A stretch of DNA of 64,000 nt from IMG/VR virus record IMGVR_UViG_3300005326_000040, positions 1-64,000 of that record. The stretch is one strand, 5' to 3'. Position numbers and translations under genes: made by a program. The notes under the pieces were generated by a model. It made no database searches. It was not told the origin of the DNA and saw only the letters and a list, made by a program, of their open reading frames with translations. This document shows, in pieces, positions 20,511 to 29,233 of the stretch. Each line of letters begins with the position of its first letter. Position 1 is the first letter of the stretch. The DNA comes from a virus. Taxonomy: Duplodnaviria > Caudoviricetes.

Positions 20511-20909
20511 TTACCGAGCGTTAATAGCTCCAAGTAAGTTATTTTTCCCTTCGGCTGTTTGAATAGCTCTTTCTAAAAGCCCTGCTCTAATTTTGTTCGC
20601 CATCGGTTCGTAGCTATCAGGCATTTCTCTAAGTTCGTTAATGCTTTTGCGAACGTTGGAAATTTTGATGGACCAAGTCTTCTCAGAATTCACGCAACGA
20701 TAGGTAAAGCGAAGGAAAATGGGCTCGTCATTTTCTACGATATTGCCGTTTTCTTCTAGGACATGTTTCTTCATGTCGTCAAGCATTAGGATGAAATCAT
20801 CCCAATTGTCGGGTCTTTCAGCGTCGCGTAATAATTCTTCTTCGGTAGGTTGTGGTAGTGTAAACTCTTCGGTGTTCATGAAGAAGTATATATCTGCCTT
20901 TGAATGCAA
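20511..20909 (-). CDS. Hypothetical protein, lone minus-strand gene
   Basis: ORF track; fills the gap in the + strand run; likely start is ATG 20879 just downstream of GATATATAC. Confidence 0.6.
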   Translation of the reverse strand: MHSKADIYFFMNTEEFTLPQPTEEELLRDAERPDNWDDFILMLDDMKKHVLEENGNIVENDEPIFLRFTYRCVNSEKTWSIKISNVRKSINELREMPDSYEPMANKIRAGLLERAIQTAEGKNNLLGAINAR

Positions 20910-27598: not shown

Positions 27599-27674
27599 CA
27601 GGACATAGCTCAATTGGTAGAGCACTCCGTTTGGGGCGGAGAGGTTGGGGGATCATCACCCTTTGTCCTGACCA
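27599..27674 (+). tRNA. tRNA-Pro (anticodon TGG) with CCA; atypical T-loop ATCATCA
   Basis: Acceptor CAGGACA/TGTCCTG + A + CCA; anticodon stem CTCCG/CGGAG with loop TTTGGGG. Confidence 0.85.
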
Positions 27675-27691
27675 ATAGAGAAAAGCAATAG

Positions 27692-27729
27692 GCGCCATAA
27701 GCAAACAAGCTTGTGGCGTTTTTGTTTTT
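27692..27729 (+). terminator. Terminator-like hairpin plus U-tract between tRNA-Pro and tRNA-Asp
   Basis: GCGCCATAAGC-AAACAA-GCTTGTGGCGT followed by TTTTGTTTTT. Confidence 0.5.
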
Positions 27730-27804
27730 GGGACCGTAGCACAATGATAGTGCAGCAGATTGTCGATCTGTATTATGCGAGTTTGAGCCTCGTCGGTCCC
27801 GCCA
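27730..27804 (+). tRNA. tRNA-Asp (anticodon GTC) with CCA; T-loop TTTGAGC
   Basis: Acceptor GGGACCG/CGGTCCC + G + CCA; anticodon stem GCAGA/TCTGT with loop TTGTCGA. Confidence 0.9.
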
Positions 27805-27962
27805 TTGAAAATTTGGGTTGGTAGCTCAGTGGTAGAGCAGCTGATTGTAGAAGGCGTTGAACAGAATAGTGTTGCAACTCGGTTCAAAGCTGGAGCCTTC
27901 GCGGTTAATCAGCCTCGCGCAAGTTCGATCCTTGCCCTTCCCTCCAATTGAAAATTTGGGTT
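27804..27962 (+). repeat. 16-nt direct repeat ATTGAAAATTTGGGTT at 27804-27819 and 27947-27962 (inter-tRNA spacer plus tRNA start)
   Basis: Exact match read from the sequence. Confidence 0.85.
27815..27946 (+). tRNA. tRNA-like gene with 57-nt insertion in the anticodon loop (mature form Tyr-GTA or Asn-GTT)
   Basis: GGGTTGG-TA-GCTC-AGTGGTA-GAGC-A-GCTGA-TTGTA[GAAGGC...GCCTTC]GCGGTTAA-TCAGC-CTCGC-GCAAG-TTCGATC-CTTGC-CCTTCCC-T-CCA; two U-U mismatches in the acceptor stem. Confidence 0.75.
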
Positions 27963-28032
27963 CGTAGCTCAATTGGCTCAGAGCGCTCGGCTCTTAACCG
28001 AGAGGTTGCGGAATCGTTCTCCGCCGGACTCA
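27958..28032 (+). tRNA. tRNA-Lys (anticodon CTT), no CCA; atypical T-loop ATCGTTC
   Basis: Acceptor GGGTTCG/CGGACTC + A; anticodon stem CTCGG/CCGAG with loop CTCTTAA. Confidence 0.85.
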
Positions 28033-28045
28033 CTAAGAAAAACTT

Positions 28046-28120
28046 GGGGCTGAAGCTCAAAGGAATGAGCAGTTGGCATTAAGCCAACATAGGTTGCGAG
28101 TTCGAATCTCGTCGGCTCCG
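28046..28120 (+). tRNA. tRNA-like gene with TTA anticodon (ochre suppressor-like or degenerate)
   Basis: Acceptor GGGGCTG/CGGCTCC + G; D stem GCTC/GAGC; anticodon stem GTTGG/CCAAC with loop CATTAAG; T arm GCGAG-TTCGAAT-CTCGT. Confidence 0.7.
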
Positions 28121-28149
28121 CAAATATCTAGCATGTTATATATTCCCGC

Positions 28150-29007
28150 ATGCAAACAGAATCCGACAGCCAATCATTAAAAGAAGCATTTGAAAAGTTA
28201 AAAGGTTACGCTGAAGTTATTAATGAAAATGATCTCAAAAAGCAAGATCTATTTCAAACTTTATCTCAGAATATTTCTGAAACCAATAAATTTTACGAGC
28301 AAGCTTCTAATTCTATTCGTCGCAGAGTAGATCATGATAGTTTTTTACGAAAAGCGCTGGTTGTTGACCCTTTGCCTCCATTGGCGAAAGCTGAGTATAT
28401 GGCAGAGGAATATAAACGAAAGATAAGTGTTCCGACATTGTATCAACGTTTTTGTGTAAAAAACACAAATGAAGACGCTAGTTTTTATAATAGAGCAGAT
28501 AGATTGGTGCAAAAGGCGATACAGAAAATAATAAAATCTGAGACGCAAATTTTACTCTACTTATTTGCAGTTTGTACAAATAATCGACTCATCATAGATT
28601 GTCGTAATGAATCGCATTCGATCAAAGTTGCTATACAAAAAATGAGAGAAGCTATCTATAATGCTGGTTTGCAATTTGATTTACCTAAAGATCACTCTAT
28701 TGCAATAAGTCATTTTTTCATAAATTTTCTTGATTTTGCCGAGCTAACTAAAGATGTAGCAACAAACAAAGAAAAGCAAGAGTATATGGATTACAACAGG
28801 ATTTGTAATTGTTCTTTTAACGCTAGTCAACTTGTTCCACGGGGAAGAATCTATGGTATTCCTGACCCAGAATATTTAGGAGTTATGCCTATTGTTCAAG
28901 ATATAACTGTTACTAAAATAGATTCAGAATTTATGTTCTTAGAGGGGGCTTATGAACATGGATATGGTATTATTATACCTGAATTTGTTTTTGCAGCCGA
29001 TATTTGA
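28150..29007 (+). CDS. Divergent major capsid protein (HK97-fold) paralogue
   Basis: SNSIRRRVDHDSFLRKALVVDPLP and LVPRGRIYGIPDPEYLGVMPIVQDI match, from memory, conserved N- and C-terminal blocks of a huge-phage MCP family (ANPIRRNLDYQG.ARKALVVDPLP ... ADPEYVGVMPIRQDI). Confidence 0.65.
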   Translation: MQTESDSQSLKEAFEKLKGYAEVINENDLKKQDLFQTLSQNISETNKFYEQASNSIRRRVDHDSFLRKALVVDPLPPLAKAEYMAEEYKRKISVPTLYQRFCVKNTNEDASFYNRADRLVQKAIQKIIKSETQILLYLFAVCTNNRLIIDCRNESHSIKVAIQKMREAIYNAGLQFDLPKDHSIAISHFFINFLDFAELTKDVATNKEKQEYMDYNRICNCSFNASQLVPRGRIYGIPDPEYLGVMPIVQDITVTKIDSEFMFLEGAYEHGYGIIIPEFVFAADI

Positions 29008-29038
29008 TAGAGCTTTTTCTGTGAGATATATTCTTCCT

Positions 29039-29233
29039 ATGAAGACCTGGAAGCAAGCAAGTATAGAAGCTGAACTTACAGCCATCAGCAAGTTAGACCC
29101 TAATATTTTCGATGAGGATCCTTTACCTGACCACCCTTATCGAGATAACCCCAATACAGTTAGTGTTGTTGAGATACGTACGAACGTGACTTGTTTTGAT
29201 AAGCTTAAGACATTCTTGCGGTCGATTTTTTAA
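29039..29233 (+). CDS. Small hypothetical protein (MKTWKQASIE...)
   Basis: ORF track 28952-29233; ATG 29039 follows GATATATT. Confidence 0.5.
   Translation: MKTWKQASIEAELTAISKLDPNIFDEDPLPDHPYRDNPNTVSVVEIRTNVTCFDKLKTFLRSIF

Follow-up and report, generated by a model that had tools for sequence, protein, structure and literature searches.

A Diverged Paralogue of the Major Capsid Protein with a Reduced E-Loop, Encoded in an Auxiliary Region of a Huge Phage Genome

Introduction

What use might a huge phage have for a second copy of its major capsid protein (MCP) that is encoded apart from the head genes? This question is raised by an open reading frame (ORF) of 285 amino acids, termed P0001 here, in a phage genome record of 338,055 bp with a completeness of 97% (CheckV), probably originating from a groundwater metagenome. 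The window considered in this study comprises the first 64 kb of the record. A sequence-only reading of this window had assigned the ORF to a huge-phage MCP family and offered three functions for its product: a T4 gp24-like vertex or minor capsid protein, a capsid-size modulator, or a non-assembling decoy for capsid-sensing defenses. We examined the protein, its gene, its relatives, and the actual MCP of the same genome in order to weigh these and further explanations.

Results

The P0001 gene is located on the plus strand (28150..29007) and runs from an ATG start codon to a TGA stop codon followed by an in-frame TAG. It starts 28 nt after the end of a tRNA cluster (Pro, Asp, Lys, and UUA-anticodon tRNAs; 27599..28121, plus strand; ARAGORN), confirming the initial description of a 285-aa ORF directly behind these genes. 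The final cluster gene (28046-28121) encodes the UUA-anticodon tRNA, an ochre reader. An extension of P0001 by read-through with this neighboring tRNA was ruled out, since the stop codons are TGA and TAG. Family scans of the neighboring genes between 24.7 and 38.2 kb revealed no head match and, as the sequence-only reading had stated, no portal, protease, or scaffold match, and yielded matches only to a glycosyltransferase and a Dda-like helicase, both farther downstream. Larger genes elsewhere in the window match ADP-ribosylglycohydrolase and M23 peptidase. Integrase, primase, and packaging genes were not seen around P0001 in the window, and no satellite hallmarks were found nearby. The surroundings of P0001 are an auxiliary region without a head module. 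Among public sequencing runs, no RNA run containing the stretch was found, and the groundwater metagenome was the only DNA run to contain it in full.

Sequence comparison places P0001 in the family of phage G gp27 (PF25209 Phage_capsid_4/phrog_2522), as a diverged full-length paralogue of the MCP that the phage itself encodes. It aligns over its full length with the MCP of the same genome, P0002, at 25% identity (BLASTP, E 1e-19), is matched by phrog_2522 in its C-terminal part only (E 2.6e-8 against the protein), and matches gp27 in a tblastn search (E 1e-6). Together, the BLASTP and phrog_2522 matches bear out the original assignment to the MCP family. A local copy of Pfam gave no match for P0001, nor for the true MCP P0002. 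Within the genome, phrog_2522 (“major head protein”) matches three sites, namely P0002 (E 2.5e-77), P0001 (E 8.8e-7), and a weak fragment at ~242.4 kb. The search for the true MCP thus ended at P0002, a protein of 337 aa encoded at 324,370-325,383 of the record (324.4-325.4 kb), and this phage has a true MCP separate from P0001. P0002 shares 52.8% identity with phage G gp27 and has more than 1700 homologue clusters, the best 120 listed being 75-88% identical. Its gene is immediately preceded by a decoration-like gene, the position that gp26 has in phage G, and a 1106-aa protein with a head-protease domain is encoded nearby at 308.7-312.1 kb. For P0001 a shell-forming head-module role was not matched, P0002 being the far better phrog_2522 match. 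The two genes are 296 kb apart along the record, or about 42 kb if the genome is circular. The description of P0001 as “shortened” holds in comparison with the phage's own MCP of 337 aa and fails in comparison with the family, since gp27 has 282 aa.

Two further observations concern the MCP sequences of this genome. The P0002 clade carries an N-terminal extension of ~42 residues, composed of a helix and a subsequent disordered linker (pLDDT <50). Phage G gp27 has no such extension, its start corresponding approximately to MCP residue 42, and the extension of the 337-aa clade may represent a propeptide or a scaffold-binding element. The weak phrog_2522 site at ~242.4 kb corresponds to a 203-aa ORF (record 242,342-242,953; L003:1474-2085, plus strand) that contains the last ~45 MCP residues in two pieces, EPEF.G..PIRQEI.VLPADEP...GW and then INPRGVIAGRK, split by an insert of ~145 residues without a clear family. 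This third MCP-derived piece in the genome sits between TROVE and thioredoxin genes, and the paralogue pair of a relative occupies the equivalent interval.

The three motifs on which the family assignment had been based are all present and align with P0002. The N-terminal helix motif LKEAFEKLKGYAEVI (residues 10-24; 28177..28221, plus strand) aligns with SLKDAFGTIMKYASLLEEN of P0002 and forms a helix in the structural models of both proteins. With ~10 of 22 positions identical (~45%), this motif clearly exceeds the overall identity of 25%. The RKALVVDPLP block (residues 67-76; 28348..28377, plus strand) corresponds to the strand leading into the E-loop (model strand 71-74) and is kept in all aligned MCPs and paralogues, R67 being invariant and D73 nearly so. 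The DPEYLGVMPIVQDI block (residues 239-252; 28864..28905, plus strand) represents the long strand of the P-domain sheet (model strand 244-257) and, located within the phrog_2522 match, shows the highest conservation between paralogue and MCP. Between these conserved parts, P0001 lacks 14 residues of the N-arm linker, 18-20 residues after DPLP, and a 15-residue glycine-rich A-domain loop relative to P0002, and carries ~17 residues inserted after the spine helix. According to pairwise and multiple alignments, the E-loop interval from DPLP to I(S/T)VP comprises 15 residues in P0001 vs. 33 in P0002, so that the shortening noticed behind the DPLP block is real. Where the MCP has its E-loop of 33 residues, P0001 has a 15-residue stub, PLAKAEYMAEEYKRK (28378..28422, plus strand).

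P0001 was modeled with AlphaFold2 from an alignment of 19 sequences, with a resulting mean pLDDT of 82.7 and pTM of 0.75. The model is confidently predicted to adopt the HK97 fold, with N-arm, P-domain including the spine helix, and A-domain. It matches HK97 capsids and encapsulins with a Foldseek probability of 1.00, and VIA-align returned Z-scores of 14-16.5 over 200-230 aligned residues at an rmsd of 3.5-4.5, so the structure search did return the HK97 fold that the initial assignment to the family implied. Phage G gp27 is the best viral structural match (BFVD, E 2.7e-13), and the nearest structure in the ESM Atlas is a 337-aa PF25209 MCP cluster (TM 0.74). The N-terminal helix is retained in the model (residues 3-24). 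In the AlphaFold2 model of P0002 (pLDDT 76.7), strands 101-112 and 121-130 make up the E-loop, and residues 233-246, the glycine-rich loop, are disordered. The model of P0001 has the E-loop reduced to strands 82-85 and 90-93. Model and alignment thus agree that the full-length E-loop hairpin is absent from P0001 and that a stub of two 4-residue strands is left; since both models put the gap in the E-loop hairpin, the missing stretch is indeed the E-loop, as had been supposed from HK97 topology. A predicted complex of MCP and P0001 scored 0.00 and, run without controls, carries no weight either way. As read by eye, the N-terminus of P0001 contains neither a twin-arginine motif nor a hydrophobic stretch that could serve as export signal.

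Relatives of P0001 are rare. A word-indexed search with P0001 retrieved one relative and the same search with profile A4 three proteins, and an exhaustive HMMER search gave 14 matches in 1.84 billion representatives, most of them MCPs. Three scans of viral contigs and one of genome contigs revealed no member of the P0001 family, and neither did a strict metagenome pattern; a looser pattern hit 33 loci, nearly all true MCPs, and in addition one tandem-pair fragment (L036). Tracing the syntenic site by the neighboring thioredoxin gene led to 80 unrelated loci without an MCP-like gene. In a maximum-likelihood tree, P0001, P0003 (303 aa, 36-39% identical), P0004 (284 aa, 31-33% identical), and the more distant relatives P0005 and P0012 form a clade separate from all MCPs (support 98/98). 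The E-loop truncation is common to P0001, P0003, and P0004, which also share the specific motifs KxKIxVPT, RGRIYG, and GYGII.PE.VFA; P0005 and P0012 keep a longer loop.

P0004 is encoded on a 256-kb contig at 223-244 kb, ~80 kb from the MCP gene of the same contig (147-160 kb). The paralogue is hence present in both near-complete genomes of this subclade, the 338-kb record and the 256-kb contig. Their MCPs are 87% identical, their paralogues only 33%. The flanks of P0004 are syntenic with 230-255 kb of the 338-kb record, indicating that the gene moved in one of the two lineages. At three related loci (L008, L007, and L011), another MCP-like gene with a long E-loop comes directly after the orthologue (family B; L008:10862-11665, L007:1839-2555, and L011:1083-1988) and overlaps it or starts 6 nt away. 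L036 represents another such pair of A (P0001-like) and B genes. In the tree, the family B genes have long branches apart from the A family, and none was found in the 338-kb genome. Accordingly, P0001 is “stand-alone”, as first described, in its own genome, and the term does not extend to the three related loci, where its counterpart is the first gene of a tandem MCP-like pair. The idea of complementary halves, with A genes lacking the E-loop and B genes the N-arm, was rejected, the N-arm being missing in only one of three B genes. In the 256-kb relative, a resolvase and Cas12f/TnpB-like pair resembling IS607 (L008:2764-4543) is found ~5.5 kb from the paralogue pair and not contiguous with it; the element is absent from the 338-kb genome.

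The expression signals of P0001 differ from those of the MCP. No Shine-Dalgarno sequence is present upstream of P0001, unlike the MCP gene and the decoration gene upstream of it, which have AGGAGA ribosome-binding sites. Instead, P0001 is preceded by an extended -10-like element, TGtTATATA (28134..28142, plus strand), whose end is 7 nt from the ATG. In L008, L007, and L011, the orthologues carry TATATA 8 nt before their ATG within otherwise unalignable flanks, so that a TATATA-type box 7-8 nt before the ATG, without ribosome-binding site, is found in four of four orthologues. Genome-wide, the box has this spacing at about seven genes, in comparison to roughly one per other spacing bin. Examples with TATATA, TATATT, or TATAAT 7-8 nt before the ATG and without Shine-Dalgarno sequence are located at 20879(-), 207976, 209851, 237425(-), 260544, and 326548. 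The motif GATATATA, often preceded by T and G, recurs in front of tRNA genes as well as many other genes and probably represents the common promoter -10 of this phage. Judged from these patterns, we infer that the P0001 box is a sigma-70-type extended -10 element giving rise to a leaderless or near-leaderless mRNA. Immediately 3' of P0001 (window 29004-29233), a small ORF of 64 aa from the ATG at 29039 is preceded by a -35/-10 pair (TTGATA-17-TATATT) whose -10 ends 6 nt before the ATG, again without a ribosome-binding site, and looks like a second leaderless-type gene beside P0001.

In terms of composition, P0001 has the lowest GC (33.0%) and GC3 (22.7%) of the 243 genes longer than 450 nt; P0002 ranks at the 95th percentile for GC and the 93rd for GC3. 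The orthologues of P0001 have average GC, so that the AT drift is peculiar to the 338-kb genome. Within its clade, P0001 also shows the longest terminal branch (1.54 vs. 0.62-0.66). Between the 338-kb and the 256-kb phage, dN amounts to 0.093 for the MCP and 0.78 for the paralogue, with dN/dS values of 0.26-0.42 that are only rough owing to saturated dS. Despite this ~8-fold difference in dN, an exceptionally fast evolution of P0001 was rejected. Genes common to both phages range from 30 to 87% identity, placing the 33% of the paralogue at the fast end of this range, and 30-32% is seen for two genes of the head module located just before the decoration-like gene. The MCP is the slow extreme among the shared genes, and the paralogue is not an outlier.

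Discussion

We tentatively propose that P0001 is an accessory MCP derivative that takes part in head assembly as a lattice-incompetent, low-copy subunit or modulator, a reading that may well apply while falling short of probable. According to the model and alignments, the protein keeps the HK97 core (P-domain sheet, spine helix, and A-domain), the N-arm, and the N-terminal helix in common with the MCP, and these elements could still allow it to bind at the sites used by an MCP subunit or by the assembly partners of the MCP. The E-loop is normally laid over the neighboring subunit, so that P0001 within or beside a capsomer could not pass this contact on. Made in small amounts from its own promoter, apart from the late head genes, it might be found at rare, specialized sites, or act on MCP assembly by capping, nucleating, or biasing it.

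Several lines of evidence favor such an assembly role. P0001 and the phage's own MCP are paralogous over the full length, and the HK97 fold of P0001 is confidently predicted. Outside the core strands, its most MCP-like part is the N-terminal helix, which is specific to the 337-aa clade and suggests a common assembly partner. Conservation of the stub in P0001, P0003, and P0004 speaks for a kept design rather than a random deletion, and the family-specific motifs together with a dN/dS below 1, a rough value given saturated dS, point to a working protein. The occurrence of the paralogue in both near-complete subclade genomes adds to this, and its divergence, being similar to that of the two head-module genes, shows that the evolutionary rate does not exclude an assembly role. 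The missing ribosome-binding site and the lowest GC3 of all 243 genes, set against the strong site and high GC3 of the MCP gene, suggest a low-copy product. To our knowledge, the MCP paralogues with a known role (T4 gp24, Jabs MCPp, and SaPIbov5 Ccm) all act in capsid assembly; all of them keep the E-loop as well, and this casts doubt on the same role for P0001. Further doubt arises from the distance between P0001 and the MCP gene, which the genes of T4 gp24 and Jabs MCPp adjoin, from the differing genome position among relatives, from the small family size compared with the MCP clusters, and from surroundings that are auxiliary or counter-defense-like rather than structural. The longest branch, the extreme AT content, and the lack of a tandem partner in this genome could moreover mean relaxed selection.

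The auxiliary surroundings, which include the ADP-ribosylglycohydrolase, the tRNAs, and many small unknown genes, would fit a reading of P0001 as a capsid mimic in conflict: a non-assembling look-alike of the unassembled MCP, made before the late genes, that soaks up or blocks capsid-sensing host immunity by a CapRel-, Avs-, or Lit-type logic, or interferes with a co-infecting relative. The losses concern precisely those elements that form the lattice, and the MCP motifs of highest conservation remain; the gene has its own sigma-70-like promoter element, of a type also present before tRNA genes, in place of the MCP signals; its position varies between relatives; and its dN lies at the fast end of the shared genes, far above that of the MCP. 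We nevertheless consider this function somewhat unlikely. A sensor that binds P0001 as it binds the MCP should be triggered rather than blocked, 25% identity may be poor for a sequence-specific sensor, and weak translation signals with poor codon usage are unsuited to an abundant sponge. In addition, the tandem second paralogue of the relatives has no obvious role in a decoy scheme, and within the part of the literature surveyed no MCP-derived decoy was found. A bolder version, in which P0001 is an early non-assembling decoy that blunts capsid-tuned host sensors and is one of several MCP-derived accessories (loop-less, domain-less, or exported) of phage-G-like huge phages, appears unlikely.

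The low expression signals would also fit the about 55 copies per virion, compared with thousands of MCP copies, expected if P0001 were a true minor shell protein, forming pentons or holding another fixed position in the mature head like T4 gp24 or Jabs MCPp. As an MCP paralogue with complete HK97 core and N-arm that is present in both near-complete subclade genomes, P0001 would have precedents for this function. Penton E-loops, however, are known to make contacts and P0001 has only the stub, its gene is not beside the MCP gene, and its genome position is not conserved. In phage G, the structurally solved relative, only gp27 matches P0001, and the gp27 and capsid-protein passages of the phage G paper mention no second capsid protein. 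Altogether a fixed shell position is quite improbable, and among the three functions originally suggested the gp24-like penton fits worst, owing to the missing loop. The composition extremes and the long terminal branch would suit a decaying duplicate, left over under relaxed selection in this genome and without present function, whose tandem partner has been lost and which has moved from its syntenic site. Against decay, the frame of 285 codons is intact at 33% GC, for which we estimate a chance of ~1e-10, all family-specific motifs are retained, the fold is predicted confidently, and the promoter geometry is kept across four orthologues with unalignable flanks. This makes decay very improbable. 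The remaining probability falls to explanations not listed here, and the accessory role in head assembly ranks first.

Second capsid protein copies are otherwise known only as penton subunits or as a satellite tool for capsid shrinking, all with the E-loop kept. A conserved and intact copy minus the lattice loops, combined with unusual expression signals and auxiliary surroundings, points toward the HK97 fold being used for something other than building a shell. If P0001 tunes assembly, it bears on the nucleation and sizing of very large capsids (genomes >300 kb), which are poorly understood. A mimic function would make it the first capsid-derived counter-defense protein, as far as we found. 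Literature searches returned no description of a phage MCP paralogue that lacks the E-loop.

The closest known system is the MCP of phage G, gp27, for which the capsid structure is solved (PDB 6wkk). The HK97 fold is common to P0001 and gp27, as are the core motifs LVVDPLP and DPE[FY][LV]GVMP. P0001 differs from gp27 and from its own MCP by the E-loop stub, the loss of the A-domain loop and the N-arm linker, and the insertion behind the spine helix, and its gene differs from the own MCP gene by the lack of a ribosome-binding site, a very low GC3, and the distance to the head genes. A protein search of the phage G record gave no P0001 match besides gp27 itself. Encapsulins are among the top structural matches of P0001 (Z about 15) and are compact HK97 folds of similar size; they share only 8-14% identity with P0001, though, and have functional E-loops. 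Family scans of the neighbors, which were not aimed at encapsulin cargo, revealed no cargo-like gene. By its sequence, P0001 derives from the MCP family of the phage itself.

T4 gp24 is a vertex protein with an E-loop, and its gene lies beside gene 23. In the Mycobacterium abscessus phage Jabs, MCPp (ORF73) is smaller than the MCP and encoded directly after the MCP gene (ORF72); it forms the pentons, and its E-loop makes penton-penton and penton-hexon contacts. P0001 resembles both in being a diverged second copy of an HK97-fold shell protein in the same phage genome. Unlike P0001, they have a full E-loop and a gene adjoining the MCP gene. The satellite SaPIbov5 encodes Ccm, a homologue of the helper phage capsid protein that redirects assembly, forms pentamers, retains the E-loop and a cleaved delta domain, and does not build the shell alone. 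Its identity to the partner capsid protein (~24%) is close to the 25% between P0001 and P0002; Ccm, however, is satellite-encoded and acts against the phage, whereas P0001 resides in the phage's own genome.
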